Below, in pieces: positions 9,455-35,001 of a stretch of DNA of 45,868 nt. The number at the start of each line of letters is the position of its first letter. Position 1 is the first letter of the stretch. Below the pieces are notes generated by a model that worked only from the letters and a program-made list of their open reading frames with translations, searched no databases and was not told the origin of the DNA. The DNA is from Rhodospirillaceae bacterium (GTDB lineage Bacteria; Pseudomonadota; Alphaproteobacteria; UBA8366; GCA-2717185), in the NCBI GenBank assembly GCA_018660965.1, contig JABJJH010000037.1:1-45868 (forward strand), written 5' to 3'. Position numbers and translations under genes: made by a program.

Positions 9455-9946
9455 CTACACCTTTTGATACCCGTAGTAACGGCCCGCACAAACATCGCTT
9501 GGCACTGCTATCGTTTTAAATTCTGAAATTCGCTCAAGGGATTGATCACAATACACGAACCCGCCTTGGCGAAGGAGGCCTGGCAGGAGCGGCCCTATCG
9601 CCGCGACATTGCGTTCGGTCGCTTCCGCGTCCCCATACCCGATATCGGCATGGATCAGCGCGGCATTCGGGCCCAGTTTCGCCGCCGCCGCAACCAAAGT
9701 GTCCGCCATGGCGCCCAGAAACAACCGATCCTCGGGGGGCCGACAATCGGGATGGGACGCAACTTCCTTGTCGAAAACATAAATGTTACGATTTGGAAAC
9801 AAATTCCGTAAATGATCGTATGTGCGCCCATTGCCGAGCCCAAGCTCCAGAATATGACCCTGTGAGTTACCGATATGGTCGACGGCGGCGTTCAGGCAAC
9901 TCCGTTGCGCCTTCAGGCGGCCAATGACCGCGTCCAGTCGGGACAT
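9455..9946 (-). CDS. Small class I SAM-dependent methyltransferase-like protein
   Basis: ILELGLGNGRTYDHL resembles SAM-binding motif I. 163 aa. The start lies 1 nt after the stop of the upstream cNMP-binding gene, so they are likely coupled. Confidence 0.55.
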   Translation of the reverse strand: MSRLDAVIGRLKAQRSCLNAAVDHIGNSQGHILELGLGNGRTYDHLRNLFPNRNIYVFDKEVASHPDCRPPEDRLFLGAMADTLVAAAAKLGPNAALIHADIGYGDAEATERNVAAIGPLLPGLLRQGGFVYCDQSLERISEFKTIAVPSDVCAGRYYGYQKV

Positions 9947-9947
9947 G

Positions 9948-10400
9948 TTACTGGGAATTCGCCACGGCTTCGCGGAGCCGCACCGTGGTTACTTCAAGCC
10001 GGTGCGCCAGTTCACGCATGATTTCGACCGCAATTTGCGGAAATTCAACGACGAGGCTGAAAAATAAATCCTTGGTGATCCGCAGCGTTGTTACCTCTGT
10101 TTTCGCTTTCACCGTCGCAGTTCGCGGTACATCGCAAAGGATCGCAATCTCGCCAACGATTTCATTTTCGTCCAGTGTCGCCACGACAAGCGGGCCGCCC
10201 GGAGTATCCACCACAACATCGGCTTTCCCACCGATAATGATATACGCCGCATCCCCCGCGTCGCCCTGCTCGAACAACACATCGCCTTCCGCATAGGTCA
10301 GGCGTTCGCTGGTGAACGCCAGCAATTTCAGCTTCGATGGTTCGATTTTCGAGAAAAGTGGAATCTTTCGAAGGAGTTCCACCTCATCCAATAAGCCCAT
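9948..10400 (-). CDS. Stand-alone cyclic-nucleotide-binding (CAP/PKA-type CNB) domain protein, no output domain
   Basis: FEQGDAGDAAYIIIGGKADV...GEIAILCDVPRTATVKA is the phosphate-binding cassette pattern. The 150 aa end right after the C-helix, with no HTH. AGGAG lies upstream of the ATG. Confidence 0.85.
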   Translation of the reverse strand: MGLLDEVELLRKIPLFSKIEPSKLKLLAFTSERLTYAEGDVLFEQGDAGDAAYIIIGGKADVVVDTPGGPLVVATLDENEIVGEIAILCDVPRTATVKAKTEVTTLRITKDLFFSLVVEFPQIAVEIMRELAHRLEVTTVRLREAVANSQ

Positions 10401-10508: not shown

Positions 10509-13175
10509 TTATCCCTCATCCAGCAATGTCTTGAATTCACCGTCTTTCGAGGACAGGTCGTCGAATGACCCACTTTGCGCGACACGGCCATCCTTCATAA
10601 CAATGATTTCATTAAAACTCTTGGCGTCGCCGATGCGGTTTAAGACCCAAACAAGGCCCTTACCCTGCCGTAGCTTCAGGAGGTTCTCTAAAATTTTCAC
10701 CTGAGAAGATTGGTCTAGGCTGACCCCTGCTTCGTTCAGAATCAAAAGCTTAGGATCCTTGATCACCGCGCGCGCAATCGCCAGTTTCTGACGTTGGGCC
10801 TGTGACAAACGCGCGCCGCCAATGCCGGCGGGGAAATCCAGCCCAACCGTGATGACGGTCTGACGTAATTCAAGGCTATCGATGACATCGCCAATCACCG
10901 CGCCCATCTTGGCCGCCGATTGCGCCTGTCCATAAGCCAGTTTGCCAAACAGGATATTGTCCTGCAGCGACGCCGAGGGGTTGTAGGCGTCGACATCGAA
11001 AAAGGCGATCTTGTCGCGCAACGTCTCCGGCAAATCCCTGGCGAAAACCTCACGGGCTTCAAGGATGCGCTCCATCATCCGCTCGTCGATCAAATCGAGA
11101 CGATGACGCGCCGGACTTAACATGAAGGGCAGCGACTCCAGCCTCAGCCGGTCTTCTTCCGTCAACCCCTCCACGCCGCGCGCAGCGCGCCCAAGCAAGG
11201 TCTGGTAGTCCGGCAAGTCTTCGGAATCAATAAAGCTGAACTGTTCAAAAAATTCGTGTCCAGGCGGCAAATCGGCGAACAACTCGACCATGGTCTGCGC
11301 AACATTCTGCCCCATTGTCAGAAAGTCGTCGCTGAGTCCGACCGTGTCGAGAACCTGACGCATATAGGGGTGTTCCGCCAATTTTTCGAGATCGAACGAA
11401 TCGTCCGCGGGCAAGCCAAACAAGATGTTTTCGGCCACCGTCGCATTCGTGTTGAAACGGGATTGATCGAAAGGCTCGATCAGCGGCGCGATTTCCGGTT
11501 CCGACAAGCGGTCGCGCAACAACCGGCGGGCGGACATTATTCGATCCGCGATATCGCCGCGCCGGGTAGGGTCAATCGTCCCCCGCAGCCCCATTTGGTA
11601 GACGTCCTCCGACAAATCCACCATCGACAGCAATTCATTGACCCGTTCCATCATCTCTTCGCGCCCCGACACTCCCGCCGCCGCATAGTCGATCCAGTCC
11701 GCGTTGTAGTCATGCGGCGAATTGCCGGTTACGTCCGCTTCTCCCTTTTCCAACTCGGCCCGTGTGGCCTCCTCGCCGTCGTATTCATGCGCGACCACGG
11801 GACGATGCTTAAGGCCATAAACCAAATTGTCGCCAACGGAAAACGCCTGCAGATACGCACTCGACCCGACATAGGCGATGTCCCGACCGGTAACGGCCTC
11901 GGGCATATTGGCGATGTCCTGGCCCCCGAACAGCACCCTGCCGCTGGTCGGCGTCAGAAGCCGGGCCAAGACTTGAGCCAAGTCGTCCTTTCCGCTGCCG
12001 CTCGCCCCGACAATCGCCAAATGTCCATCGCACTGCGCCGTAAAGGAGACAGCCTCAAGCGAACGCACCCCGTCTTCATCGGAAAGGCTGACGTTGTTGA
12101 CCGCAAGCTCAGCCGTAATGGGCGACGAAGCGGTCGGTTCGTCATGCTGCAGATGTTCTTCCAGCATGCCTTGCGGCTCGAACTGTTCGACCACTTGTTC
12201 ATATTTGATGCGGACATCCTCTTTCTGTTGGTACCAGGCCAACAGTTCCTTCCACGGACTGGCTAAATCCTTGTAGGCGTTCAACACCGCCACCAGTGCG
12301 CCGACGGTTAGTTCGCCTTCGATCACCAGAAAGCCGCCAATGGAAAAGAAAAAGAACGGCGTCAGCTTATCAATGAAATTGTTGAGGAACTTAACGAAGA
12401 ATTTTCGCCGGTAAATTTCATAGCGAATCAGGTAAATCCCGCCCAATCGATTGGCGAAGCGGGCCATTTCCAGATTCGACGTATCATGCGCGTGAATTTC
12501 GCCGATACCCGACACCGATTCGCCAAGATGGTCCGCCAACCGCCGCACGTTCTGGACGCGCTGCTTGCCAAGGGCGTTCACCTTTTTTTGCAATTTCGGG
12601 ATAATGAAGCCTTGCACGGGAATCAGCGCCGCCGCCGCCAAACCAAGCTTCCAGTCCTGCAGCAGGATGTACCCGATAATCAGCGCCAGTTGACCGCCAA
12701 AAAACAACGGGTCGGCGAAAGCGATGCCGATAAACCCGCCCAGCGGCTCGACTTCCGCCGTGATCATCGGAATCAATTCGCCCTGACTGACTTTTTTAAA
12801 ATGCGGAATGGGGAAGCGGAGAATCCTCGTGTAAAGTTGATAGCGTAGCCGCCGCAGCAAGCGTTCCCCCATCCGGCCCTTGAACACGCTGATGTAGTAT
12901 TTGAAGCCGCCGGTTATGAAAACCAGCGCCAAATACGTGAAACTTAAAATAAGCAGAAAGGTCAGCTGCGATACGTCGAATTCGATTTCATACCCGAAAA
13001 TCGGCGCTTCGAATATGTCGCCGCCTGCATTCGGTTTGATCGCCCGGTTGACGATAATCTTTGGCAAATCGAGCGAAACGAACAAAAACGGATAGAACGC
13101 GAGGATCACGCATAACAGATAAATCTGCTGCGCCGCGCTATAGCGCAAAATATATTTGAAGATTGATTTTTCCAT
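10509..13175 (-). CDS. ABC exporter-type fused permease/nucleotide-binding protein with degenerate ATPase motifs and an enlarged NBD
   Basis: About 350 aa N-terminal six-helix ABC exporter TMD. The NBD has Walker A GASGSGKD, signature LSQAQ, Walker B LLILNE, D-loop SLD and H-loop position VLNRI. About 390 aa separate Walker A from the signature motif. Confidence 0.85.
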   Translation of the reverse strand: MEKSIFKYILRYSAAQQIYLLCVILAFYPFLFVSLDLPKIIVNRAIKPNAGGDIFEAPIFGYEIEFDVSQLTFLLILSFTYLALVFITGGFKYYISVFKGRMGERLLRRLRYQLYTRILRFPIPHFKKVSQGELIPMITAEVEPLGGFIGIAFADPLFFGGQLALIIGYILLQDWKLGLAAAALIPVQGFIIPKLQKKVNALGKQRVQNVRRLADHLGESVSGIGEIHAHDTSNLEMARFANRLGGIYLIRYEIYRRKFFVKFLNNFIDKLTPFFFFSIGGFLVIEGELTVGALVAVLNAYKDLASPWKELLAWYQQKEDVRIKYEQVVEQFEPQGMLEEHLQHDEPTASSPITAELAVNNVSLSDEDGVRSLEAVSFTAQCDGHLAIVGASGSGKDDLAQVLARLLTPTSGRVLFGGQDIANMPEAVTGRDIAYVGSSAYLQAFSVGDNLVYGLKHRPVVAHEYDGEEATRAELEKGEADVTGNSPHDYNADWIDYAAAGVSGREEMMERVNELLSMVDLSEDVYQMGLRGTIDPTRRGDIADRIMSARRLLRDRLSEPEIAPLIEPFDQSRFNTNATVAENILFGLPADDSFDLEKLAEHPYMRQVLDTVGLSDDFLTMGQNVAQTMVELFADLPPGHEFFEQFSFIDSEDLPDYQTLLGRAARGVEGLTEEDRLRLESLPFMLSPARHRLDLIDERMMERILEAREVFARDLPETLRDKIAFFDVDAYNPSASLQDNILFGKLAYGQAQSAAKMGAVIGDVIDSLELRQTVITVGLDFPAGIGGARLSQAQRQKLAIARAVIKDPKLLILNEAGVSLDQSSQVKILENLLKLRQGKGLVWVLNRIGDAKSFNEIIVMKDGRVAQSGSFDDLSSKDGEFKTLLDEG

Positions 13176-13443: not shown

Positions 13444-14673
13444 ATGCAGCAACGGAAGTCGCCGCGTGTGCTGATTTACAGCCACGATACGTTTGGTCTG
13501 GGCCATTTGCGGCGATGCAGCGCGATCGCGCACGCCCTGTGCGAAAGCAACGAGGACCTGTCGGTGCTGATCCTGTCAGGCTCGCCCATTATAGGCAGTT
13601 TCGATTTTCGATCCCGCGTCGATTTCGTCAGAATTCCCGGCGTCATTAAGTTGCACAACGGGGAATACACCTCGCTGACACTGCCCATGGCGGTGGACGA
13701 CACCATCGCCATGCGCGCATCGATCATTCAACACACCGCAGAATTTTTCGATCCGGACATATTCATCGTCGATAAAGAACCGTTGGGATTGCGAGGCGAA
13801 CTCGCCGCCACGCTCGACGTTTTGAAAAAACGCGGCGCCCACATCGTCCTTGGTCTCCGCGACGTGCTGGACGAACCACGCTTGCTCGCGCCGGAATGGA
13901 AACGAAAAAACGCCGTCCCCGCGCTGGAAACCTATTACGATGAAATTTGGGTTTATGGCCTGCCGCAAGTCTGCGAACCGCTGGCGGAGATCGACCTGCC
14001 CGACTCGCTTCGGCGTAAAATGATATACACCGGTTATCTAAGACGCTTCGAAGGATCGAAACCGGTCGGGCAGCCCGCCTTCACGAAAACCGACAAGCCC
14101 TACATCCTGGTGACGCCCGGCGGCGGCGGCGACGGCGAAACCCTGGTGGACTGGGTGTTGCGCGCCTATGAAACCGATCACGACCTGCCCTATGCGTCGA
14201 TGATCGTGCTGGGTCCGTTCATGCAATCCGAGCGCCGTTCCGAATTCATCACCCGCGCCGACGCGCTGGACAAGGTCGATGCGATCACCTTTGAAGCCCA
14301 CATGGAAAGCCTGGCCGCCCACGCCGTCGGAATTATCGCCATGGGCGGCTACAACACCTTCTGCGAAATCCTGTCCTTCGACAAAAAGGCCCTAATCGTG
14401 CCGCGCACCGCGCCCCGGTTGGAACAATACATTCGCACCAGCCGCGCGGAAGACCTTGGCCTCGTCAGCATGTTATGCGACGACGGCATTCGCGCGGCGG
14501 AAACCATGGCGACCGCGATTCGGCATCTGCCGCAGCAACAATCGCCGTCCGACATCGTCGTGCCCGGCCTTCTCGACGGGTTGGACAATGTCAATATCCT
14601 GACCCGGCGCATGCTGGAGCGTCGTCCCAAAACAACCCGGCCGGAAATTGCGTCGGCGCGCAAACAGGCTTAG
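13444..14673 (+). CDS. Glycosyltransferase, GT-B fold (MurG/GT28-C-like, COG4671-type)
   Basis: N-terminal RVLIYSHDTFGLGHLRRC and C-terminal AMGGYNTFCEILSFDKKALIVPR (GT28 C-terminal-like nucleotide-sugar pocket). Confidence 0.72.
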   Translation: MQQRKSPRVLIYSHDTFGLGHLRRCSAIAHALCESNEDLSVLILSGSPIIGSFDFRSRVDFVRIPGVIKLHNGEYTSLTLPMAVDDTIAMRASIIQHTAEFFDPDIFIVDKEPLGLRGELAATLDVLKKRGAHIVLGLRDVLDEPRLLAPEWKRKNAVPALETYYDEIWVYGLPQVCEPLAEIDLPDSLRRKMIYTGYLRRFEGSKPVGQPAFTKTDKPYILVTPGGGGDGETLVDWVLRAYETDHDLPYASMIVLGPFMQSERRSEFITRADALDKVDAITFEAHMESLAAHAVGIIAMGGYNTFCEILSFDKKALIVPRTAPRLEQYIRTSRAEDLGLVSMLCDDGIRAAETMATAIRHLPQQQSPSDIVVPGLLDGLDNVNILTRRMLERRPKTTRPEIASARKQA

Positions 14674-14723
14674 GAGCCATCGCCCGGAATGACCAAAAGC
14701 ATAATGAATAGACCCCAGGATTT

Positions 14724-15953
14724 ATGGCGATGGCCGTCGCATTCGTCCTAAAGGGATATCCGAGGCTGTCGGAAACCTTTATCGCCCAGGAAATTAGGGC
14801 CCTGGAACAGCGCGGCCTCGACATACGAATTGTATCCCTTCGCCACCCCACCGACACCGATGCGCACCCGGTGCACCGGGAAATCCAGGCGCCGATTCTT
14901 TATCTTCCCGAATACCTTCACCACGAACCCATGCGCGCGGCGCGCGCGATAATCCACGCCCGGACCTTGCCAGGTTTCGCCGCTGCATTCGCGACATGGC
15001 GAGCGGATTTGCGCCGCGATTTTACGCGAAACCGCATACGCCGGTTTGGCCAGGCCTGTGTGTTGGCGCATGAATTACCGCCAGGGGTCGACAGGCTGCA
15101 CGCCCATTTCCTCCATACCCCGGCGTCGGTCGCGCGTTACGCGGCCATCATGAAAGGCCTGCCTTGGAGCGGGTCGGCCCACGCCAAGGACATCTGGACA
15201 ACGCCCGCATGGGATATTCGGGAAAAACTGGAGTCTCTCGATTGGCTGGTCACCTGCACACAAGCGGGCGCAGACTATTTACAAAGCCTGGCGCCGACCC
15301 CATCGACCGTATCGCTGGTCCATCACGGTCTTGATTTCAGCCGCTTCACGACGCCCGACGCCCGCGAAAAGGTCAAGAATGCGCCCCTGATAATTCTGTC
15401 GGTCGGGCGCGCGGTGGCGAAAAAAGGCTATGACGATTGCCTGCAGGCCCTGGCGTCCTTACCGCCGCAATTGGATTGGCGATTCCGCCATATTGGCGGC
15501 GGCCCGCTATTGAGCGAATTGCGCGAGCGCGCGCGCGGTCTGGGACTGGACGACCGCATTGAATGGCTGGGCGCGCAGCCGCAAAATGTCGTGCTGTCCG
15601 AAATGCGGCGCGCCGACATCTTTGTGCTGCCCAGCAAACAAGCCCCCGACGGCGACCGTGACGGCCTGCCGAACGTCCTGATGGAGGCGCAAAGTCAGCG
15701 TGTAGCCGTGGTCAGCACCCGGCTGTCGGGTATTCCCGAACTTGTCCTCGACAGGGAAACCGGTCTTCTGGTGACGCCCGGCGACGCAAAGGCGTTATCC
15801 AGCGCGCTGCGAAACCTTTTAGAAGACTCGGCCTTGCGGTCCCGGTTGGCGCAGGCCGGTTTCGAAAGGGTCAGGTCCCGGTTTTCAATGGATGACGGCA
15901 TTGATTCGCTATCGAATAATTTTGGCCTGCGGGCGCGGCCCGCCGCCGCCTGA
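14724..15953 (+). CDS. Glycosyltransferase family 4 (WcaL-like)
   Basis: N-terminal GYPRLSETFIAQEI and C-terminal DGLPNVLMEAQSQRVAVVSTRLSGIPELV (E-x7-E region). Confidence 0.85.
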   Translation: MAMAVAFVLKGYPRLSETFIAQEIRALEQRGLDIRIVSLRHPTDTDAHPVHREIQAPILYLPEYLHHEPMRAARAIIHARTLPGFAAAFATWRADLRRDFTRNRIRRFGQACVLAHELPPGVDRLHAHFLHTPASVARYAAIMKGLPWSGSAHAKDIWTTPAWDIREKLESLDWLVTCTQAGADYLQSLAPTPSTVSLVHHGLDFSRFTTPDAREKVKNAPLIILSVGRAVAKKGYDDCLQALASLPPQLDWRFRHIGGGPLLSELRERARGLGLDDRIEWLGAQPQNVVLSEMRRADIFVLPSKQAPDGDRDGLPNVLMEAQSQRVAVVSTRLSGIPELVLDRETGLLVTPGDAKALSSALRNLLEDSALRSRLAQAGFERVRSRFSMDDGIDSLSNNFGLRARPAAA

Positions 15954-17095
15954 TGCATATCGCCTTTTACGCGCCGTTGAAGCCGCCGAGCCATCCGGTT
16001 CCTTCCGGTGATCGCCGCATGGCGCGATTATTGATTAAGGCGCTTCGCGGCGCCGGGCATCGGGTTTCCATCGCGTCCAGGCTGCGCAGTTACGACGGGC
16101 AAGGCGACGCCAAACGCCAGGACGTCATTCGCCGCCGCGCCGCGCGAATCGTCCAAACCTACATCGACAAAATTAAGGGCGAAAACCGCCCGGATATCTG
16201 GTTTACCTATCACCTTTATCACAAGGCGCCCGATCTTCTGGGTCCAACGGTCGCCGAGGCGCTGGCGCTTCCCTATGTCGTCGCCGAAGCGAGCTTCGCC
16301 CCCAAACAAGACCGTGGCCCCTGGCGACGCGGGCATGCGGAAGTCGGAGACGCCCTGCGTCGCACTGCGCGGATCATCATGCTCAACCCCGATGACGCCC
16401 CATGCGTTCGCGCTTTAATCGGCGACAATGACAACGGTCGCCGAATCACCGCCCTGGCGCCCTTTATCGACACCCGTCCGGCCCGGGCGGCGGCTTCAAA
16501 GCGGGCGACGCATCGGGTGGATTTCGCGCGCCGCCTCGGACTGAACCCGAACGTGCCCTGGCTCGCCGTCGTGGCGATGTTGCGGGGTGGCGACAAACGC
16601 GATTCCTATCGGGCCTTGGCCGGGATCATTCGCCGACTGCGCGAGACGCCGCTGCATCTTCTTATTGCAGGCGATGGACCGGCGCGCGCGGAGATCAAAG
16701 GGTTTTTCGGAGACGACCCCCGCATTCGCTGGCTTGGCGAGATAGCAGCGTCGGAAATTGACGCCTTGCACGCCGCCGCCGATCTCGTGGTGTGGCCCGC
16801 CATGCGGGAAGCCTACGGCATGGCGCTTTTGGAAGCACAGGCCGCTGGCGTTCCGGTGGTCGCCGGCGGCGCGCCCGGCGTCCGCCAAATTGTTGCGCAC
16901 GGTGAAACAGGATTGATTGTTCCCATGGACCCCGACTCTCTGGTGACCTGCATGACGGATGCGGTATCGAGTTTGTTGAGCGACGCCGAACGACTGCGCG
17001 CCATGGGCGACGCCGCACTGGAACGCGCACGGCGCTGTCACGATATTGAATCAGCGGCCCAACGATTGAACAAGATTTTGGAAGACGCGATATGA
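15953..17095 (+). CDS. Glycosyltransferase family 4
   Basis: PSGDRRMARLL N-terminal region and EAYGMALLEAQAAGVPVVAG...IVAHGETGLIV. The start overlaps the upstream stop by 1 nt. Confidence 0.85.
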   Translation: MHIAFYAPLKPPSHPVPSGDRRMARLLIKALRGAGHRVSIASRLRSYDGQGDAKRQDVIRRRAARIVQTYIDKIKGENRPDIWFTYHLYHKAPDLLGPTVAEALALPYVVAEASFAPKQDRGPWRRGHAEVGDALRRTARIIMLNPDDAPCVRALIGDNDNGRRITALAPFIDTRPARAAASKRATHRVDFARRLGLNPNVPWLAVVAMLRGGDKRDSYRALAGIIRRLRETPLHLLIAGDGPARAEIKGFFGDDPRIRWLGEIAASEIDALHAAADLVVWPAMREAYGMALLEAQAAGVPVVAGGAPGVRQIVAHGETGLIVPMDPDSLVTCMTDAVSSLLSDAERLRAMGDAALERARRCHDIESAAQRLNKILEDAI

Positions 17096-17703
17096 CTCTG
17101 CTGGCCGTGATCCGGCATGGACCCACCGAATGGAACGAAAAGGGCGTCGTTCAGGGCCACAGCGACATTCCGCTCAGCGCCTCTGGCCGTGTCAGCGTTT
17201 CCGCATGGACCCCGCCGCGCGATCTCGATATCTTTGATTGGGTCGCCAGCCCGTTAAAGCGGGCCCAGGAAACTGCGGTTATTCTGTCCGGGCGGCGCCC
17301 CCGCACCGATGGCCGGCTGACCGAAATGAACTGGGCGGTGTGGGAAGGAAAACGCCTGCCTGAATTGCGCGCGGAACTGGGCGATCTCATGAAGGCGTGG
17401 GAAGCGAAGGGGCTCGATTTTCGCGCGCCCGGCGGCGAAAGCCCACGCGATGTGCAAGACCGCTTGAAGCCTTTCCTCGCCGAATGCGCGGCCAAACGCC
17501 AGGATACCGTTGCCGTGTGTCATAAAGGCGTCCTTCGCGCCCTGTACGCGCTATCGGTATCCTGGGATATGACGGACAAGGCGCCAGAAAAGCTTCACGA
17601 CGAGTGTGTTCATTATTTCCGGCTCGATTCAAACGGCGCGCCCACGCCCCATCGTCTGAACCAGCCGATGACCGATTCTCCAACGGCGTATGGCGGCGGT
17701 TAA
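17092..17703 (+). CDS. Histidine phosphatase family protein (phosphoglycerate-mutase-like)
   Basis: AVIRHGPTEWN (catalytic RHG) and a later VCHKGVLRAL (second catalytic His region). ATGA overlap with the upstream gene. Confidence 0.85.
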   Translation: MTLLAVIRHGPTEWNEKGVVQGHSDIPLSASGRVSVSAWTPPRDLDIFDWVASPLKRAQETAVILSGRRPRTDGRLTEMNWAVWEGKRLPELRAELGDLMKAWEAKGLDFRAPGGESPRDVQDRLKPFLAECAAKRQDTVAVCHKGVLRALYALSVSWDMTDKAPEKLHDECVHYFRLDSNGAPTPHRLNQPMTDSPTAYGGG

Positions 17704-17707
17704 CGGA

Positions 17708-18847
17708 ATGGCGCGGGTCCTTTTCCACGTTCAACATTTGCTGGGCATTGGTCACCAATCACGCGCCGCCGCGATCACGCGCGCCATGACCGCCGCTGGT
17801 CTCGACGTTATTTACGCCACGGGCGGATTTCCCGACTCCACACTCGACCTTGGCGGCGCAAGCGTCGTGCAATTACCGCCCGCCCGCGCCCGCGACGCCA
17901 CTTTCAAAACGGTATTGGACGAAACCGGGCGCCCCATCGACGACGCCTGGGAAACCCGGCGGCGCGAGGCGTTGCTCGCCGCGTATCACACGGCCAAACC
18001 CGACGCCGTCCTCGTCGAAGGGTATCCCTTCGCGCGACGGCGATTTCGCTTCGAGCTATTACCGTTGTTACAAGCCACCAAGGACGACGGCGCACCCGTC
18101 GCAGTGTCGGTGCGGGACATTGTTGCGCAGAAAAGCAGCCCCGCCCGCGCGCAGGAGACCGTTGATATTGTCCAACGTTTTTGTACATCCGTGCTTGTGC
18201 ATGGCGATGCGGCGTTCATTTCGTTCAACGCGACATTTCCCGCCGCAGCCGACATCGCCGATAAAATCCGCTACACCGGCTATGTTTCGCCTCCGTTTAC
18301 ACCCCCCCAGAAAGCTCCAACCCGCGACGGCGTGGTTGTTTCGGTCGGTGGCGGCGCCGTCGGCGGGCCGTTAATACGATGCGCCCTGGCGGCGCGACCG
18401 TTGACCCGCCTCCGCGACGCGCCATGGCGATTTATGACCGGCCCGAACCTTCCTGAACCGGACCGTCGCGCGTTGTCGGCGTCTGACGGCGTTTCAATCG
18501 AACAATTCAGTTCCGATTTTCGCGGCCTGTTGTCGCGCGCCGCCGTGTCGATAAGCCAGGCGGGCTATAATACCGTCATGGATGTACTGATCACCCGCAC
18601 TCCCGCCGTGTTGGTCCCGTTCAGCCAGGAAGGGGAAATCGAACAAACCATTCGAGCCGAATTATTGACCCATCAATCGGGATTCAAATTTGTTCCGGAA
18701 CCGGAATTAACTGCCAAGCGCCTGGCGCTCGCCGTGGACGAGGTCGTTTTCGATACCGCGCCGACAACCTCAATCCACACCATGAACATGGACGGCGCGG
18801 CGGAAACCGCAAAGATTATGCTTCATCTTGCCTCTTTAAAGCGCTGA
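17708..18847 (+). CDS. Glycosyltransferase, GT-B fold (paralog-like of 13444-14673)
   Basis: RVLFHVQHLLGIGHQSR and SQAGYNTVMDVLITRTPAVLVP mirror the motifs of the first glycosyltransferase. The start could also be ATG 17690. Confidence 0.7.
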   Translation: MARVLFHVQHLLGIGHQSRAAAITRAMTAAGLDVIYATGGFPDSTLDLGGASVVQLPPARARDATFKTVLDETGRPIDDAWETRRREALLAAYHTAKPDAVLVEGYPFARRRFRFELLPLLQATKDDGAPVAVSVRDIVAQKSSPARAQETVDIVQRFCTSVLVHGDAAFISFNATFPAAADIADKIRYTGYVSPPFTPPQKAPTRDGVVVSVGGGAVGGPLIRCALAARPLTRLRDAPWRFMTGPNLPEPDRRALSASDGVSIEQFSSDFRGLLSRAAVSISQAGYNTVMDVLITRTPAVLVPFSQEGEIEQTIRAELLTHQSGFKFVPEPELTAKRLALAVDEVVFDTAPTTSIHTMNMDGAAETAKIMLHLASLKR

Positions 18848-18870
18848 TCGAATTCGCTATACAGAATCAC

Positions 18871-19632
18871 ATGCCTCAATTGCGCTACGCCGACGAGCAA
18901 ACAGGTTGGGCCGCGTTCTTCGCGGAACTCGACGCATGGCGTGACGCCGGACGTGTCGCGACGTTCTGGTGGCGCGACGACGATGCGACGGACGAGACCC
19001 CGGCGTTGACGCGCTTGCTGGACATTGCAGGCGACATACCGGTTTCGTTGGCGTCGATCCCCCGCGATGCGACGACCGCGTTGGCGAACGCCATCGCCGA
19101 CCAGCCCAACGTATCGGTGCTTCAGCATGGATATGCGCACACCAATCATGCGCCGCCTCTGGAAAAAAAGGCCGAGTTCGGACCCCACAGGCCCCTTGAT
19201 GCGATGCAACGGGACCTGACGACCGGATTCATACGACTGCGCGACCTTTTCGGTCCCCGCTTCCAGGCGATATTCGTTCCGCCTTGGAATCGAATGGCGG
19301 ATAGCGTCGCGCCCCTGTTACCACAGGTTGGGTTGCAATCGTTTTCAACCTATGGACTGACGCAGAAGTCCCTGGCCGCGCCGCAAGTCAATACACACGC
19401 CGACATCATCAATTGGCGCGGTGGCCGTACCTTTCTGGGGGAAAGCGCCGTCCTCGACCTCATGACAAACCACCTTTCGGCGCGCCGTCGAGGCGACGCG
19501 GCGGAAAATGCGCCAACCGGGCTGTTGACTCATCATTTGGTCCACGATGACGCCTGTTGGCGGTTCACCGGGGATCTGGTGCAGGCCGTCACGGACCACC
19601 CTGCAGCCTCATGGAAAGCGCCGACGGCATGA
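18871..19632 (+). CDS. Polysaccharide-deacetylase-like family protein
   Basis: FWWRDDDAT...LQHGYAHTNHAP...FVPPWNR, a motif pattern I associate with proteins annotated as the polysaccharide deacetylase family in alphaproteobacteria. Family assignment is from memory only. Confidence 0.55.
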   Translation: MPQLRYADEQTGWAAFFAELDAWRDAGRVATFWWRDDDATDETPALTRLLDIAGDIPVSLASIPRDATTALANAIADQPNVSVLQHGYAHTNHAPPLEKKAEFGPHRPLDAMQRDLTTGFIRLRDLFGPRFQAIFVPPWNRMADSVAPLLPQVGLQSFSTYGLTQKSLAAPQVNTHADIINWRGGRTFLGESAVLDLMTNHLSARRRGDAAENAPTGLLTHHLVHDDACWRFTGDLVQAVTDHPAASWKAPTA

Positions 19633-20126
19633 ACGCCGCCCACCAATACCCCCTGAACAGCCTTTACGGCGATTACATTCGCGCGGCGATCGGCGTGGGA
19701 TTTTGCAGTGTCCCTTTATCTTTTGTTAACGACAGCCCAGTATTGTTAACCATTCTTGCCGGAGTCTTATTATTATTCTTGGGCTTTGGCGCGAAGACGG
19801 CCATGCGGCATTTGACCGTCATTCAAACCGAAGAAGAAGGCATCATCGCCAACGGACCATTTGGTCGGCGGATCGCCTGGCGGGATATTAATAAGGTAGC
19901 CCTTAAATTTTATTCGACGCGCCGTGATACTAAAGAAGGTTGGATGCAATTGACGATATTCGGCGCAACGGGAAAATTGACGATCGAATCCTCTTTGGAC
20001 GGGTTCAACGATGTCGCCAATTCCGTCATTCAGGCCGGTTTTCGCAACAACGCGCAAATGGACGAAACGACAATGGAAAATGTCGCCGCCCTGGGCATTG
20101 TCGTTGATATGGCGGATGGAGCGTAA
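19629..20126 (+). CDS. Hypothetical small membrane protein (two predicted helices plus a beta-rich, PH-like C-terminal domain)
   Basis: ATGA overlap with the upstream stop. Hydrophobic stretches [14 protein letters not shown] and [16 protein letters not shown], then [18 protein letters not shown]...[16 protein letters not shown]. Confidence 0.5.
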
Positions 20127-20130
20127 AAGA

Positions 20131-22020
20131 ATGTCGCCCGCCTTGCTCAGCATCGAAAACCTGAAGGTCCAGTTCACCTTGCCCGAAGGTATTATCGAAG
20201 CGGTCAAAGGCGTTTCCTTTCAAATTCAGCAAGGCCAGACCGTAGCTCTGGTCGGTGAATCCGGATCGGGGAAATCCGTCATCTCACAATGCATCATGGG
20301 CATCCTGCCCAAGGCCGCGTCAATTTCGTCGGGCCGGATTTTATACAATGACCCGAAAGACCCGGGAGACGCGATCGACATCGCGGCGCTCAACCCGGAC
20401 AGCGCGGCGATGCGCGCCGTCCGCGGCAGCCACATCTCCATAATTTTTCAAGAGCCAATGACGTCCCTGTCACCGCTGCACACGGTCGGCGATCAGGTCA
20501 GCGAAGCGCTTCATCTGCATCGCAAAACCAGCAGGGCGGAAGGGCTGGAGATCACCCAGGATATGCTGCGTCTAGTCGGATTCCCCGACCCGGCTCGCGC
20601 GCTACGAACCTATCCGTTTGAATTATCCGGTGGTCTGCGGCAACGCACGATGATCGCCATGGCGCTGGTGTGCCGCCCCAGCCTGTTGATCGCGGACGAA
20701 CCGACGACGGCGCTTGACGTCACGATCCAGGCGCAGATCCTCAAATTGCTCCGCGATCTTCAAGGCGAACTCGGTATGGCCGTACTGATGATTACACATG
20801 ACCTTGGCGTCGTCGCCAACATGGCGGAAAACATCGTCGTCATGCATCATGGCGAAGTTATGGAGTCCGGGGGCCTCAACGACATTTTTCGCAATCCCCA
20901 ACACCCCTACCTCAAAGCGCTGCACAAGGCCGTACCGCGCTTCGATTTGGCGCCCGGCGAACGCTTGGTGCCCATTCGCGAAATCGAACATCACAAGGGC
21001 TTCCTTCAAGAAGCAAAGGAGCCTTGGCCGGAAACCGCCGGCGCGGAAGCGCCCCTGCTGAAGGTGGAAAACCTGTCCAAAGCATTCCAGATTCGCAAAA
21101 GCAGCCTCTTCGGCGGCGCGGCGGGACAGGTCAAGGCAGTCGATGGCGTCAGCTTCGAAATCCCCCGCGGCGAATGTCTGGGCCTTGTCGGGGAAAGCGG
21201 CTGCGGCAAAACCACATTGTCGAAAATGCTGATGCGCGCGCTGTCGCCCGATACCGGCGCGGTGACCTATAACGACCGCGGCGCGCTTGTCGATGTGTTG
21301 GCGCTAACACAACATGAATTAACGTCCTTTCGCCGCAAGATGCAGTTTATCTTTCAAGATCCCTTCAGCTCGCTTAATCCCCGCATGCCGGTCTTCGACA
21401 TCATCACCGAACCGCTGGTCATTCATGGAATCGGCGATGACGATAGCCGCCGGGAAGCGGCGCGCGAGTTGATGCGCCTGGTCGGTTTGGACGTTCGGCA
21501 TCTCAACCGCTATCCGCACAGTTTTTCGGGCGGCCAACGCCAACGCATCGGCATTGCCCGCGCCCTGGCGCTGCAACCCGATTTGTTAATTTGCGACGAA
21601 CCGGTCTCCGCGCTGGATGTATCAATTCAGGCGCAAATCCTCAACCTTCTCAAAGATTTGCAGACCGAGCTCGGGCTTACCTATTTGTTCATTTCCCACA
21701 ATTTAGCGGTCGTGAACTATATTGCCGACAACATCGCGGTCATGTGCCACGGGCAACTGGTCGAACAAGCCCCGCGCGACATTTTGTTCAAACGACCAAC
21801 GCACCCCTACACCCAGGCGCTGCTGCAAGCCGTGCCGGAAGCCAATCTGAACGCACCGTTGAATTTCGATCATCTCATGGCGGAAAAGGCGTCCACGCCA
21901 TCACAATGGCCGCACCCCTTCGCCGATTTAGACGGAACCCGCCCTGTTCTGCGGGACATCGGAGATGGCCATATTGTCCGCGCTTTGGCGGACGCCGAAA
22001 TTCGGGAACCAGCATCGTGA
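20131..22020 (+). CDS. Fused double-NBD ABC ATPase of a PepT (peptide/opine/nickel) type importer
   Basis: Two complete cassettes: [28 protein letters not shown] and [31 protein letters not shown] 20131 is preceded by GGAG. Confidence 0.92.
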
Positions 22021-23969
22021 CTTCAGCCTCCTTTCGCGCCGCCCCTTTGTTGATGGCGCTGGCGTTGATGACTGGCGCCATGGCCCCGGTCAGCGCCGTC
22101 GCGGCGTCTTATATCGAAACGCCCGTATTTGCGGCGGACGTTGCGGCGGGAAAATTGCCGCCCGTCGCGGGACGCCTGCCGGAAACGCCCTACCTTCGAC
22201 CCATGAACCAGATGGATCAAACCATCGGGCGCCACGGCGGAACCATGACGATGCTGATGGCGCGACCGAAAGATATTCGGTTGATGATCGTCTATGGCTA
22301 TGCGCGACTGGTCGCATACGGTCGCGACCTTCGAATCGATCCCGATATCTTGCGCGATTTAGAGATTGAGGACGGTCGAAAGTTCACCCTTCACCTTCGG
22401 CCCGGCCATAAATGGTCGGATGGCGCGCCGTTCACCACCGAGGATTTTCGCTATTATTGGGAAGACGTGGCGAACCACGACATGCTGGCGCCGACGGGTC
22501 CGCCAGCCGTGCTGCGTGTGAATGGCAAACCACCGGTCGTCACCATCATCGACGAAACCACCATTCGCTATGAATGGGAAAGTCCGAACCCGGCGTTTCT
22601 GCCGGCCCTTGCCGGCGCGCGCCCGCTATATATCTACCGGCCCGCCCATTACCTTCGCAAATATCACGCGCGCTACAAGGACAAAGCCAAGCTAAACGCC
22701 AAAGCGAAAAAGAAAGGGCAGCGAAACTGGGCGGCCCTGCACAACAAGCTGGACCACCAGTACAAAAACAAAAATATCCGCTTGCCCTCACTTCAGCCCT
22801 GGGTCAACACCACCAAGGGACCGTCGGAACAATACATCTTCAAGCGCAACCCGTATTATCACAAGGTCGACCCGGAAGGCCGCCAATTACCTTATATCGA
22901 TCGCGTCGTCTTTAGCATCGCCAGCGGCAAGATCATTCCCGCCAAGGTGGGAACGGGCCAGGCCGATTTGCAGGCGCGTTATCTGCGCTTTGATAACTTC
23001 ACCTTTCTAAAGCGCAACGAGAAGAAAAGCGGATTTAACACCCGTCTGTGGCGCACCGGCAAGGGCGCGCATATGGCGCTTTTTCCCAACCTCAACACCA
23101 ACGATCCGGTGTGGCGAAAACTACTGCGTGACGTGCGCTTCCGTCGCGCGCTGTCGCTCGCCATCAACCGCCATGAATTAAACCGGGTGATTTATTTCGG
23201 TCTGGCGCTGGAGGCGCAAAACACGGTGCTTCCCGATAGTCCACTATTTCGCGAGCAGTATCAGAAAAGCTGGACCCAATACGATATCGCCGAAGCGAAC
23301 CGGCTGCTTGATTCGATGGGACTGGAAAAGCGCGACAGCCGTGGCATCCGTCTTCTGCCCGATGGTCGCCCGCTTGACATTATCGTTGAATCCACCGGCG
23401 AAAGCACCGAAGAAGCGGATGTTCTGGAGTTGATCCAGGATAGCTGGCGCCTGGTTGGCGCGAAACTACACACCAAACCGACGCAGCGGGAGGTCATGCG
23501 CAACCGCATCTACGCCGGCGAAACCGTTATGGCGATTTCCTCCGGCATGGATAATGGCCTGCCCACCGCCGACATGGATCCAGAAGAACTCGCGCCAACA
23601 TCGCAGGTTCAATATCAATGGCCTAAATGGGGACAGAACCATGAAACCATGGGCCGCACGGGGGAGGCGATCGACATGCCCGAGCCGAAGCGGTTAAAGG
23701 CGCTTCATGAACAATGGCTGCGCGCCACGTCAAGCGAAACCCGGGAGATGATCTGGCATGACATGCTGGCGATCCACGCCGGTCAACTTTATTCCATTGG
23801 TCTTATTGCAGGCGTCCTCCAACCCGTCGTAGTGCGCACGACAATGCGCAACGTGCCGGTCCAAGGCATCTATACATGGTTGCCCTGCGCGCAATTCGGC
23901 ATGTACGAACCAGACAGTTTCTGGTTCGCCGACGCCGCCGCTCCGATAAAACAAGCCGCATCCAGGTAA
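22017..23969 (+). CDS. ABC transporter substrate-binding protein, family 5
   Basis: Signal-like N-terminus ([20 protein letters not shown]) and a long SBP_bac_5-like body ([11 protein letters not shown]..., [10 protein letters not shown]). GTG 22017 overlaps the ATPase stop (GTGA). Confidence 0.88.
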
Positions 23970-23981
23970 GGCAAAGGCATA

Positions 23982-24980
23982 ATGCTCGAGTATATCGCCC
24001 GCCGCATTCTGGTGATGATCCCAACGCTGCTGGTGATCAGCGCATTGGTTTTCATCATCATCCAGTTGCCGCCCGGCGACTATTTCACGACCTACATGAA
24101 TGAGCTGCAAAGCCGCGGCGAATCCATCGACGAAGCAAAGATCGCATTCATCAAGCAGCAATACGGTTTCGATAAATCGATGGTGGAGCAATATTTCACC
24201 TGGGTGGTGGGCATGCTGCATGGCGATTTTGGCTATTCCTTCGAATACAGTCAACCGGTGTCGGATGTCATCGGCGACCGTTTGCTTTTAAGTTTCATCG
24301 TGTCGTTTACGACAATTGTGTTTACCTGGATCGTGGCGTTTCCGATTGGCGTTTATTCGGCCGTGCGGCAATACAGCATCGGCGATTACAGCCTGACGTT
24401 TCTTGGTTTCCTGGGATTGGCGACGCCAAATTTTCTACTGGCGCTGGTGCTGCAATGGCTCGCGTTCAGCACGTTCGGCACGTCCATCGGCGGCCTGATG
24501 GACCCGCAATACATCGAGGCCGGGTGGTCGCTCGACAAGGCGATGTCGATCCTCGAACATCTTTGGGTGCCGGTTCTGGTCATCGGGACGTCGGGTACGG
24601 CGGGCATGATCCGGCGACTGCGCGCCAATCTTCTGGACGAATTGAACAAGCAATATTACGTGACCGCGCGCGCCAAGGGGTTGCCGCCGGGCCGGGCGCT
24701 TTTTAAATATCCATTGCGCATGTCGTTGAACCCGTTCATCGCGGATATCGGCAATTTGTTGCCCGAAATTATTTCCGGAGCCGCGATCGTGTCCATTGTG
24801 CTGTCGCTCCCGACCACGGGACCGATGCTGCTGACCGCGCTGCAAAGCCAGGACATGTATCTCGCCGGGTCGTTCCTGATGTGCCTGGCGACGCTGACCG
24901 TCATCGGCACGCTGCTGTCCGATTTAGCGCTGGCTGCGCTTGATCCGCGCATTCGGCTTGGCGGAGGGGCGAGCCGATGA
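23982..24980 (+). CDS. ABC transporter permease (DppB/OppB-like)
   Basis: MLEYIARRILVMIPTLLVISALVFIIIQLPPGD opening and the permease EAA-region YYVTARAKGLP. Confidence 0.92.
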   Translation: MLEYIARRILVMIPTLLVISALVFIIIQLPPGDYFTTYMNELQSRGESIDEAKIAFIKQQYGFDKSMVEQYFTWVVGMLHGDFGYSFEYSQPVSDVIGDRLLLSFIVSFTTIVFTWIVAFPIGVYSAVRQYSIGDYSLTFLGFLGLATPNFLLALVLQWLAFSTFGTSIGGLMDPQYIEAGWSLDKAMSILEHLWVPVLVIGTSGTAGMIRRLRANLLDELNKQYYVTARAKGLPPGRALFKYPLRMSLNPFIADIGNLLPEIISGAAIVSIVLSLPTTGPMLLTALQSQDMYLAGSFLMCLATLTVIGTLLSDLALAALDPRIRLGGGASR

Positions 24981-26134
24981 AACACTTTGTTAACGACGCG
25001 CCCTTCGACCCTTATGTCGCCGACACACTGACGCCGGAACAGGAACGCTATTACATGGCGTCGCAATGGCGCTTGATGTGGTGGAAGTTCAGGCGCCACC
25101 GGCTGGCCGTGGTCAGCGGCGCGTTTTTGTTGGTGGTGTACCTATCCATCGCTATCAGCGAAATGCTGGCGCCTTACGATTTACAAGCGCGGCACACCGA
25201 CTATTTATACGCGCCGCCGCAATCGATTCATCTGTTCCACGAGGGCGAATTCGTCGGTCCGTTCGTGTATGGCTACAATGTCAGCCTTAACCTGGAACAT
25301 TTGCAGTGGGTCTATACCGATAACAATACCCGCGTTCAGAAACTCCGGTTTTTTTGTAACAGCGCGGACTACGACGGCGCGCGTTATGAATTCTGGAATC
25401 TGTTCGAGGCTCAGTTTCACATGGTGTGCCCGGCGGCGGGTGGACAGTTGTTTTTCCTGGGCACAGACCGCCTGGGCCGGGATGTGTTGAGCCGAGTCCT
25501 CTACGGCGCGCGCATATCGCTGACCGTCGGGCTGATCGGCATTATCATTAGCTTCGTCATGGGTCTGACCATCGGCGGCCTCGCCGGGTATTACGGAGGT
25601 ATGATCGATTCCGTCGTGCAGCGGATCATCGAAATCATTCGCTCTTTCCCATCCTTGCCGTTGTGGATGGCCCTGTCGGCGATTCTGCCGGTGACGTGGA
25701 GTCCCATTCTGGTCTTCGCGGGCATTACGGTCATTCTCGGCATGCTGGATTGGCCCGGATTGGCGCGCGCGGTGCGCTCAAAACTGCTGGCCTTGCGCGA
25801 GGAGGATTTTTGCGTCGCGGCCCAGCTAATGGGCGCCAAGCCAAGCCGGATCATCGGACGTCATTTGTTGCCCAGCTTCATGAGCCATCTGATCGCATCG
25901 GCCACCTTGTCGATTCCGAGTATGATATTAGGTGAAACGGCGTTGAGTTTCCTGGGCTTGGGCCTGCGCCCGCCGATCACCAGTTGGGGTGTCCTGTTAA
26001 ACGAAGCGCAAAACATTAACGTCGTCGCGTTGTACCCCTGGCTGATGTATCCGGTTGTCCCGGTAATCCTGATCGTGCTGGCGTTCCAGTTCCTCGGCGA
26101 TGGTTTGCGTGACGCCGCCGATCCGTACAAGTAG
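24977..26134 (+). CDS. ABC transporter permease (DppC/OppC-like, long N-terminal extension)
   Basis: LGTDRLGRDVLSRVLYGARISL and EDFCVAAQLMGAKPSRII. ATGA overlap with the upstream permease. Confidence 0.92.
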   Translation: MKHFVNDAPFDPYVADTLTPEQERYYMASQWRLMWWKFRRHRLAVVSGAFLLVVYLSIAISEMLAPYDLQARHTDYLYAPPQSIHLFHEGEFVGPFVYGYNVSLNLEHLQWVYTDNNTRVQKLRFFCNSADYDGARYEFWNLFEAQFHMVCPAAGGQLFFLGTDRLGRDVLSRVLYGARISLTVGLIGIIISFVMGLTIGGLAGYYGGMIDSVVQRIIEIIRSFPSLPLWMALSAILPVTWSPILVFAGITVILGMLDWPGLARAVRSKLLALREEDFCVAAQLMGAKPSRIIGRHLLPSFMSHLIASATLSIPSMILGETALSFLGLGLRPPITSWGVLLNEAQNINVVALYPWLMYPVVPVILIVLAFQFLGDGLRDAADPYK

Positions 26135-27485: not shown

Positions 27486-27556
27486 CGCCGCACCACCTAC
27501 TGGTTTCCACCTCGGGTATGTATCCGTTTCAGAACAAAATCCCGATCAATCCTGCA

Positions 27557-28405
27557 TCACCCTTTCTTGAGCCACAGACTCGATTCCACCGCGCCGTCAA
27601 GCAGCGGTAGTTCTGACACCCGCGACGCCTTAAACTCCTCAAACATCCGGGTTAGAACATATTGACTTGAAAACACGGGCTCCCACCCGCCGCCGCTCAA
27701 CAGCGCCGCGACGCCTTGCTGTTCATTGTAGCCCCGCCACGCCCAAGGGCGCGGATAGCCGTCCGGCAAAAACATATCGTGGATATGCACATAAACGCCC
27801 GAGGACAACGCGGGCGACACCCGATTCAACAACAGATCAACATCGCTGCCCGGCATCAGGATGTGACTTGAATCAATCGACAGGATATCGCCGGAACCGA
27901 GTGCGGCAAAGACATCGCTTTCCACGGACTGCACAACCGAACGCCGCAAACGCACATTCGTCAGTCCTTCCAAGTCCGCGCGCGGCGCGGGGTCGATGGC
28001 GGTAATAACCGTCGCGAGACCCCCGTCTTGGACAGCGCGCGCAAAAAACCGGGTGGAATGCCCGGAACCGACTTCCACAATTCGCGCGGGCTTCAGGCTT
28101 CGGGTCAAGCCATACGCCATAGCAGCGTCAAGTCTTGGAAACCAGTCCTGTCGCCAGCGCGGCGCCGACGGCGAAGCCGCACCTATACCCGACAATTCCG
28201 GCCAATACCGGTTCATATCGGTAAGTCGTTCCGCGAAAGCGTCGGCATGGTCAGCGAATAGCCCCTCGATTGCGGCATACGGCGGCGCCGTTCGGTCGAT
28301 GGACCCAGCGTGACGATAGGGTATGAAGAATCCGCGGGGCGCCAACCCCAAAATAGTTGGCAGGCCATATTGAAGCCGCTTCCACCAACCGTGAAATCCG
28401 GTCAC
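27557..28405 (-). CDS. Class I SAM-dependent methyltransferase-like protein
   Basis: RIVEVGSGHSTRFFARAV (motif I-like). The GTG start overlaps the upstream MBL gene stop (GTGA). Confidence 0.6.
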   Translation of the reverse strand: MTGFHGWWKRLQYGLPTILGLAPRGFFIPYRHAGSIDRTAPPYAAIEGLFADHADAFAERLTDMNRYWPELSGIGAASPSAPRWRQDWFPRLDAAMAYGLTRSLKPARIVEVGSGHSTRFFARAVQDGGLATVITAIDPAPRADLEGLTNVRLRRSVVQSVESDVFAALGSGDILSIDSSHILMPGSDVDLLLNRVSPALSSGVYVHIHDMFLPDGYPRPWAWRGYNEQQGVAALLSGGGWEPVFSSQYVLTRMFEEFKASRVSELPLLDGAVESSLWLKKG

Positions 28406-29235: not shown

Positions 29236-29241
29236 GCCAAA

Positions 29242-29928: not shown

Positions 29929-30017
29929 TCGATCCTCGTTGCCCATTCTTGGCGCGCACGACGTCATTATACTGCAATTGGAAAAATTTCGCCATTTTCT
30001 ACATAACTTTCACGGCC

Positions 30018-34234: not shown

Positions 34235-34245
34235 ATATCAATCAG

Positions 34246-34998: not shown

Positions 34999-35001
34999 CC
35001 A

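Follow-up and report, generated by a model that had tools for sequence, protein, structure and literature searches.

Exporters of the ATP-binding cassette (ABC) superfamily are defined by the ATP-driven dimerisation of their nucleotide-binding domains (NBDs), and degenerate ATP sites are, to our knowledge, known only alongside a working site. In the importers MetN, ModC and MalK, which are driven by ATP, C-terminal ligand-binding domains that are not of the cyclic-nucleotide-binding (CNB) fold control NBD closure. Rad50/SMC proteins and UvrA, which are soluble, active ABC ATPases and have no transmembrane domain (TMD), carry coiled-coil or DNA-binding insertions between the Walker A and the signature motif. 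The degenerate site of exporters such as TM287/288 and TmrAB is thought to be structural or regulatory (PMC7756269). HetC of Nostoc PCC 7120 is a PCAT-type ABC exporter that needs its CNB domain, and a catalytic residue of its ATPase domain is essential (PMC10986499), while SbmA/BacA (SLiPT) achieve alternating access with an ABC-exporter-like TMD by means of the proton gradient, without ATP hydrolysis (PMC13316013). Here we describe an exporter-like ABC gene on the minus strand of a 45,868-nucleotide stretch of Rhodospirillaceae DNA (contig JABJJH010000037.1, the whole of which is called the window). Its product clearly belongs to the ABC superfamily by fold and lacks the catalytic motifs of that superfamily. 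Very probably, it is a pseudo-ATPase that works with a CNB protein and without a consensus half-transporter as partner.

Gene and domain organisation

The gene encodes an exporter-fold half-transporter with a pseudo-NBD. Its borders and motifs are as follows.

10509-13175 (end including the stop codon), minus strand: whole ABC gene, 888 amino acids (aa) (open reading frame (ORF), Pfam)
12156-13175, minus strand: TMD, residues 1-340, six long helices (PF00664, helices of the AlphaFold2 (AF2) model)
11880-12155, minus strand: N-terminal core of the NBD, residues 341-432 (ABCB4/ABCB1 alignment, family counts)
within 12072-12092, minus strand: A-loop position S365-D368, without an aromatic residue (alignment to ABCB4/ABCB1)
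11985-12008, minus strand: Walker A, GASGSGKD (alignment to ABCB4/ABCB1)
10512-10817, minus strand: C-terminal core of the NBD, residues 787-888 (alignment to ABCB4/ABCB1, family counts)
10785-10808, minus strand: signature, LSQAQRQK, with LSQAQ itself at 10794-10808
10731-10748, minus strand: Walker B, LLILNE, with the codon of Asn814 at 10734-10736
10713-10724, minus strand: D-loop, VSLD, ending in D821
10632-10652, minus strand: H-loop, VWVLNRI, with the codon of Asn846 at 10638-10640

A preliminary description, made by eye from the sequence, had given the range 10509-12110, which covers the NBD part but not the whole gene. It had called the TMD a normal type-I exporter domain, and this is borne out by the match of residues 70-298 to PF00664 (ABC_membrane; 77.3 bits, cut-off 28). 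The NBD fold is recognised by PF00005 (ABC_tran; 67.7 bits, cut-off 25) in two stretches approximately 270 residues apart, and the Pfam scan of the 888-aa chain found nothing beyond these two domains. The AF2 model of the full-length protein has a mean predicted local distance difference test (pLDDT) score of 78.8 and matched TmrAB, TM287/288, PCAT1 and MsbA in Foldseek, with target-normalised TM-scores of about 0.6. Within NCBIfam, the best match was MsbA (TIGR02203) with 197.5 bits against a cut-off of 602; HepA scored 172 bits and NdvA was also matched, and no named exporter reached its curated cut-off among the 25 matches listed of 175 matching families. A 100% identical protein is present in a metagenome-assembled genome (MAG) of the Rhodospirillaceae.

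Nucleotide-binding motifs

Motif positions were set by phmmer alignment to the solved structures of ABCB4 and ABCB1. In the Walker A motif, 'vgasgsgkddl' pairs with 'vgssgcgkstt', the Lys being retained and the Ser/Thr replaced by Asp. The signature 'rlsqaqrqklaiara' stands opposite 'qlsggqkqriaiara' and does not contain LSGGQ. Walker B, 'kllilneagvsld', is aligned with 'killldeatsald' and has Asn for Asp with the Glu retained, and at the H-loop, where 'vwvlnrig' meets 'tiviahrls', His is changed to Asn. Two further deviations were found: the Q-loop Gln is replaced by Ser438 ('yvgssay' versus 'vvsqepv'), and the A-loop Tyr is gone, with a two-residue gap opposite 'YP' and S-D-E-D in the flanks. 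Hence six motifs deviate rather than four, namely the A-loop, the Ser/Thr of Walker A, the Q-loop, the two Gly of the signature, the Asp of Walker B and the H-loop.

The four motifs named in the preliminary description (GASGSGKD, LSQAQ, LLILNE and the Asn of the H-loop) are all recovered in this alignment, and the nucleotide coordinates quoted for them were exact when checked again. The catalytic Glu of Walker B, described as kept, indeed pairs with the Glu of ABCB4 and ABCB1. The profile alignment placed no consensus residues at the deviant motifs. A shifted reading by eye was rejected because the HMMER alignments put the motifs at the same places.

Since the deviant Walker A, Walker B, H-loop and signature lie in one chain, the architecture of ABC sites implies that both composite sites would be non-consensus whatever the partner, and that a consensus site could not be regained in this way. 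This touches on the explanation of a heterodimeric exporter, of which the protein would be the degenerate half while a consensus half is encoded at a distant place in the genome. In heterodimeric exporters the two halves are usually neighbouring paralogous genes, and here the partner should be an adjacent gene with consensus motifs. However, no second exporter gene was found within 8 kb on either side in a set of 80 related loci, which was the span of the partner search, nor in the 45.9-kb window, and this speaks against the unseen consensus partner considered in the preliminary description. Three weak NBD matches lie at the edges of loci, where the window itself carries the ATPase gene of a peptide importer. 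The LSQAQ signature would give no consensus signature to the site of a partner, leaving neither composite site consensus, and the 120 best listed relatives all have the same architecture at an identity of at least 55%, without a close canonical paralogue among them. We therefore regard a heterodimer as very unlikely, although it would agree with the normal pairing of known degenerate sites with a consensus site (PMC7756269).

Conservation across the family

The protein belongs to a large, uncharacterised family with its centre in the Rhodospirillales and further Alphaproteobacteria. Its listed relatives of 870-940 aa number more than 100 and are 55-88% identical to it, and in a scan of one genome per species at least 375 species encode a relative. 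Among the cultured carriers are Azospirillum spp., Inquilinus, Skermanella, Thalassobaculum and Nisaea. A pseudogene or a single event of decay was rejected, as intact orthologues of ~880-900 aa at this level of identity occur in hundreds of genomes. The database names of the relatives are generic. Residues were counted in 178 non-identical orthologues with at least 50% identity.

Position 366, A-loop: D or E in 177 of 178
Walker A Gly: near-invariant
Position 396, Walker A Lys: K 148, R 24
Position 397, Walker A Ser/Thr: D 52, S 43, E 23, T 20, G 19, N 8, Q 8, also A; S or T in 63 of 178
Position 438, Q-loop Gln: P 62, A 49, S 33, Q 28
Signature: L-[ST]-x-x-Q-R-Q-K, the two Gly positions variable, Q794, R795 and Q796 essentially invariant
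Position 814, Walker B Asp: N 142, S 15, H 13, D 6
Position 815, Walker B Glu: E 139, D 27, Q 10
Position 821, D-loop Asp: D 173
Position 846, H-loop His: N 104, H 34, S 18

None of the 178 orthologues retains five or more of the seven canonical catalytic residues, and the catalytic positions rank among the most variable columns of the alignment. The deviation is thus a property of the family, whereas the exact substitutions are not fixed and the catalytic positions vary freely. In distant full-length relatives (24-51% identity) the Walker A Lys is often replaced, the residues at Walker B and the H-loop look random, and several members have lost four residues of the P-loop with the architecture otherwise kept. 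This variation among orthologues and the loss of the Lys or of part of the P-loop support the earlier suggestion of a non-hydrolytic protein.

The NBD normally exceeds all other parts of an ABC transporter in conservation, and the pattern observed here is therefore inverted. The mean column conservation is 0.75 in the TMD, 0.58 in the N-terminal NBD core, 0.64 in the insertion described below and 0.62 in the C-terminal NBD core. The top-conserved windows, residues 91-150 and 241-330 (0.81-0.87), are intracellular-loop and coupling regions. All ATP motifs are free to drift, whereas selection still acts on the TMD, the coupling loops and the scaffold of the NBD. We interpret the NBD as a pseudo-enzyme domain that is retained as a scaffold, and its conserved function, as far as can be read from sequence, is not ATP hydrolysis nor, in much of the family, ATP binding.

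These counts also bear on the explanation that the protein is still driven by ATP through a non-canonical chemistry, for example with Asp397 taking over Mg2+ coordination from the Walker B Asp and Glu815 acting as the base, the CNB protein being only a regulator. Most members of the close subfamily still have the Walker A Gly and Lys and the Walker B Glu, and the D-loop Asp and the L-S..Q of the signature are conserved. However, position 397 can be D, S, E, T, G, N, Q or A and is not paired with position 814; a charge swap, in which the Walker A Asp compensates for the Walker B Asn, was rejected on this lack of covariation. The aromatic residue of the A-loop, the Gln of the Q-loop and the His of the H-loop are missing or variable, distant relatives dispense with the Lys or part of the P-loop and keep the rest of the architecture, and the NBD core is the least conserved region. 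An atypical ATPase is accordingly unlikely in our view, even with HetC as a precedent for an active ABC exporter under CNB control (PMC10986499).

The helical insertion

Exporter profiles match residues ~70-457 and resume at ~717, from which it follows that approximately 270 residues are inserted between the Q-loop region and the helical subdomain with the signature. The insertion had not been mentioned in the preliminary description. It is strongly conserved in an alignment of 29 homologues, in which the blocks GLRG, EPFD, NTNATVAEN-LFG, TMVELFADLPPGHEFF, FSFI and ARHRL are invariant. The insertion and the repeat units of this region are the following.

10992-11807, minus strand: insertion relative to canonical exporters, residues 457-728, all-alpha (split hidden Markov model matches)
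11481-11879, minus strand: repeat unit 1, residues 433-565, with the Q-loop strand IAYVG-S438, 'SVGDNLVYG', helices and the invariant GLRG
11013-11480, minus strand: repeat unit 2, residues 566-721, IEPFD..NTNATVAENILFG..VLDTVGL..TMVELFADLPPGHEFF..ARHRL, the highly conserved core of the insertion
10818-11012, minus strand: repeat unit 3, residues 722-786, IAFFD..SLQDNILFG..VIDSLEL, running into the canonical helical subdomain and the X-loop

Three copies of the pattern 'strand - x3 - Y/F-N-x2-A-[ST]-[VL]-x2-N-[IL]-L-F-G - helix - VLD-x-VGL' start at residues 433, 566 and 722, and the copy at residue 433 is the true Q-loop position. Profile-profile comparison of the non-overlapping units with hhalign gave these values.

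Unit 2 versus unit 3: 97.2% probability, E 3.8e-11, 61 columns
Unit 1 versus unit 2: 85.6% probability, E 5.6e-6
Unit 1 versus unit 3: 76.4% probability, E 2.2e-5
60 column-shuffled controls: at most 5.4% probability, E never below 0.007

The comparison supports an origin of the insertion by tandem triplication of a Q-loop/helical-subdomain unit. 'EPFD' and 'FSFID' were considered as relict Walker B motifs or D-loops and rejected, since hhalign pairs them with the Q-loop strands IAYVG and IAFFD; this pairing defines the repeat unit as the Q-loop strand plus the start of the helical subdomain. A known domain was likewise rejected: the insertion had no match in Pfam, none by sequence in the PDB with a profile search included and, when modelled alone, none in the PDB by Foldseek (best E 0.68). 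In the AF2 models it is all-alpha, with a pLDDT of ~85-93 within the full-length protein and 81 alone. With the insertion alone as the query, 889 clusters were recovered at E <= 1e-3 from 1.84 billion representative proteins, and on these results the insertion is specific to the family. For an NBD, tandem triplication of the helical subdomain would be a novel route to an added domain.

The cyclic-nucleotide-binding partner

The gene that follows the ABC gene on the same strand encodes the presumed partner.

9948-10400, minus strand: stand-alone CNB protein, 150 aa, 108 nt downstream of the ABC gene (PF00027)

This protein consists of a single cNMP_binding domain (PF00027; 69.8 bits, cut-off 27.5), and its best PDB matches by sequence are the CNB domains of the protein kinases PKG and PKA. 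The phosphate-binding cassette GEIAILCDVPRTATVKA at 10104-10154 (minus strand) is canonical: it contains G-E-x-A-L-x(4)-R-[ST]-A, aligns with the cassettes of PKG and PKA, and is conserved with its RTA motif in 81 family members. The match to TIGR03896, the CNB protein associated with bacteriocin-type transport, stayed at 41.9 bits below a cut-off of 161.

In each of the 80 related loci, the gene directly 3' of the ABC gene encodes a CNB homologue (39-96% identical). Among 62 distant full-length representatives, 18 are longer (1010-1206 aa), and each of them aligns with the whole stand-alone CNB protein (30-46% identity, E 1e-17 to 1e-41). All nine long relatives that were scanned with Pfam have a C-terminal cNMP_binding domain. 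Fused ABC-CNB forms occur in the cultured Thalassospira lucentensis and T. lohafexi and in a Candidatus Sulfotelmatobacter MAG, with generic annotation only. Fusion and fission together with the strict adjacency are strong evidence that the CNB domain physically works with the pseudo-NBD. In two of the nine scanned relatives the CNB domain is followed by an additional GGDEF domain, which suggests a link to cyclic di-GMP signalling in some lineages. One fused relative is followed by a further stand-alone CNB gene (locus L082, 3690-4127).

The preliminary description had also raised the option of a nucleotide-gated protein. This may hold, though with a cyclic nucleotide that acts via a domain of its own and not with ATP at a degenerate site, and on the sequence data a second messenger rather than ATP hydrolysis probably controls the ABC protein.

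Genomic neighbourhood

Upstream of the ABC gene and divergent from it, a cluster of seven genes (13444-20126, plus strand; Pfam, NCBIfam) includes four glycosyltransferase (GT) genes.

13444-14673, plus strand: GT1/GT28-like glycosyltransferase
14724-15953, plus strand: GT4 glycosyltransferase
15953-17095, plus strand: GT4 glycosyltransferase
17092-17703, plus strand: His_Phos_1 phosphatase
17690-18847, plus strand: GT28-like glycosyltransferase
18871-19632, plus strand: protein of unknown function, 253 aa
19557-20126, plus strand: protein of unknown function

According to tblastn, the first two GTs are found in nearly all of the 80 loci, and the other cluster genes at more than 60% coverage in 49-65 of the 80, a count limited by the length of the flanks. 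Synteny with the GT cluster extends to relatives at 51% and 44% identity. As no other exporter is present, the ABC-like protein readily suggests itself as the candidate for handling the cluster product in this clade.

The 253-aa protein was considered as a carbohydrate esterase family 4 (CE4) deacetylase. By eye it is NodB/CE4-like (WRDDD, HGYAH), Pfam found nothing, and the assignment stays a guess. A GT4 enzyme with weak BshA/MshA-like matches, a phosphatase and a possible deacetylase recall glycoside pathways of the mycothiol or bacillithiol type.

Cyclic-nucleotide signalling genes were found in the window and near some relatives. In the window, the cyclase and the metallo-beta-lactamase (MBL)-fold gene lie 13-16 kb from the ABC gene, and 26139-29967 represents a possible cyclic-nucleotide signalling group.

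26139-27485, minus strand: class III adenylate/guanylate cyclase
27557-28405, minus strand: Methyltransf_24 protein
28402-29235, minus strand: MBL-fold Lactamase_B_2 protein
29242-29967, minus strand: OmpR-type response regulator

A class III cyclase gene overlaps with one fused relative, a second has two cyclases and an Apyc1-like MBL-fold protein in its flanks, and a third comes after an Apyc1-like gene and an ion-channel gene; Apyc1-like MBL-fold proteins are a family of cyclic-nucleotide phosphodiesterases. Orthologues of the window cyclase occur on the same contigs as ABC homologues. A cyclase is within reach in 4 of 85 loci, and in the complete genome OZ272519.1 the orthologous cyclase is 1.5 Mb away from the ABC gene. 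The cyclase link is for these two reasons treated as suggestive only, and a class III cyclase as a conserved neighbour was accepted only in part: it is adjacent in several distant members and unlinked in OZ272519.1.

Such neighbours would agree with a protein that is not a transporter but a membrane-bound signalling or scaffold protein, whose TMD senses a cue from the membrane or the periplasm or anchors the GTs, and whose pseudo-NBD, insertion and CNB module form a hub of cyclic-nucleotide signalling; SUR, which acts on a channel instead of transporting, would be comparable. The cyclases beside fused relatives, in one case together with an Apyc1-like protein, the cyclase and MBL-fold genes of the window, and the C-terminal GGDEF domain of two distant relatives all point in this direction. 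On the other hand, the adjacency of cyclases is sporadic and absent in one complete genome, and the strongest conservation is found in the TMD and the coupling loops, in agreement with a translocation pathway that works. Lipid and glycan exporters such as MsbA, HepA and NdvA are the nearest matches among the profiles, and in the close clade the gene is tightly syntenic with a divergent glycoconjugate cluster without any further exporter. We hence consider a pure signalling or scaffold role as rather unlikely.

Several other genes were recorded in the window. The ABC and CNB genes are joined on their strand by a third gene, which lies 3' of the CNB gene in the majority of related loci, though not in every one.

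9455-9946, minus strand: Methyltransf_17 gene (PF12692, E 7e-49)

A peptide importer of the Opp/Dpp type (20011-26134, plus strand) comprises a fused double ATPase, an SBP_bac_5 binding protein and two permeases. The fused double ATPase is a 669-aa ORF here and has 634 aa in the public contig. The same type of importer lies beside the ABC/CNB genes of distant relatives (L086, L087, L088), which may exceed coincidence. A further GT4 gene (30822-31904, minus strand) adjoins a gene for a 264-aa protein of unknown function (30018-30812) that has no Pfam match and no homologue in the 80 loci. Housekeeping genes lie in 33308-36192 and 39466-45419, among them RibD_C and GTP cyclohydrolase II of riboflavin synthesis and a leucyl-tRNA synthetase. 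The window ends with parB/parA, which suggests a region near the chromosomal origin. An Rfam scan of positions 1-45868 at the gathering thresholds found no RNA family.

Proposed mechanism

The best explanation overall is, in our opinion, a homodimer of exporter fold with pseudo-NBDs that is gated by the CNB protein and takes its cargo from the GT cluster, and we assign to it a probability of roughly one half. In such a homodimer, binding of a ligand to the CNB module, docked on the NBD or on the insertion, would take the place of ATP hydrolysis and drive or permit the closure and opening of the two pseudo-NBDs. Association and dissociation of the pseudo-NBDs would still drive the TMD, the conserved coupling helices passing the movement on; this would account for the conservation of the elements for coupling and for the dimer interface. 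The family has retained the TMD with its intracellular coupling loops, and in the NBD the D-loop Asp and the QRQK after the signature. The TMD may then serve as a conduit or flippase gated by a second messenger, which would be either independent of energy or driven by a gradient, and the cargo in the clade of the window would most likely be a glycolipid or an oligosaccharide made by the divergent GT cluster. The CNB gating as such is a tentative proposal, with a chance that at best approaches an even one.

A number of observations weigh against this explanation. TM3, TM4 and part of TM6 are modelled with poor confidence by AF2. In the close subfamily, G-x4-G-K (K/R in 172 of 178) and the Walker B Glu (139 of 178) are retained, which leaves room for non-hydrolytic nucleotide binding or for a weak atypical hydrolysis. 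The evidence for docking of the CNB domain on the NBD consists of synteny and fusion. The link to the GT cluster is not family-wide, and the fused relatives examined sit in other contexts. Moreover, the CNB domain of the ABC exporter HetC binds guanosine tetraphosphate (ppGpp) in vitro (PMC10986499).

If the explanation is true, an exporter fold can be operated or gated by means other than ATP, and in Rhodospirillales cyclic-nucleotide signalling would be directly tied to the handling of envelope glycoconjugates. A bolder version, which we hold to be doubtful though worth stating, is that of the first machine of ABC-exporter fold that works without ATP, a homodimer serving as translocator or flippase in which a cyclic nucleotide, bound to the CNB module, gates the dimerisation of the pseudo-NBDs, with the CNB module docked on a new helical platform made by triplication. 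As the family is present in the cultivable genera Azospirillum, Thalassospira, Nisaea and Skermanella, the idea is directly testable.

Comparison with known systems

Our searches of the full-text literature yielded neither a doubly degenerate homodimeric exporter nor a pseudo-ABC protein with a CNB partner. Among the described systems, the homodimeric type-I exporters (type IV fold) MsbA, NdvA/ChvA and HepA have the same order of a six-helix TMD followed by the NBD, and NdvA and HepA share with the ABC gene a glycoconjugate gene neighbourhood. In contrast to them, the protein scores far below the respective cut-offs (602-1000 bits), deviates at all catalytic motifs, contains the 270-aa insertion and has an obligatory CNB partner.

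Non-consensus residues in Walker B, the H-loop and the signature are shared with TM287/288, TmrAB, CFTR, SUR and MsRv1273c/72c, of which CFTR and SUR use the exporter fold for gating or regulation instead of pumping. While these exporters always retain a consensus site and hold ATP tightly in the degenerate site, both sites of the homodimer would be degenerate here. The contacts to adenine and Mg2+ (A-loop, Walker A Ser/Thr, Walker B Asp) are also gone, and relatives lose the P-loop Lys. HetC-type exporters have an N-terminal CNB domain and a C39 peptidase in one chain with an active ATPase, whereas in the present family the CNB domain is encoded by a separate downstream gene or fused at the C-terminus, a peptidase is missing and the ATPase motifs are lost. 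The fused relatives carry the CNB domain where MetN, ModC and MalK carry their regulatory domains. The insertion is located at the same topological place as those of Rad50/SMC and UvrA, but consists of a triplicated helical-subdomain unit within a membrane exporter. SbmA, which is likened to the protein by function only, has no NBD, in contrast to the well-conserved non-catalytic NBD with its insertion that is kept in this family. If the proposed mechanism is correct, the family would fall naturally, as an intermediate, between the primary ABC pumps, CFTR as an ATP-gated channel and SbmA as a secondary transporter without an NBD.

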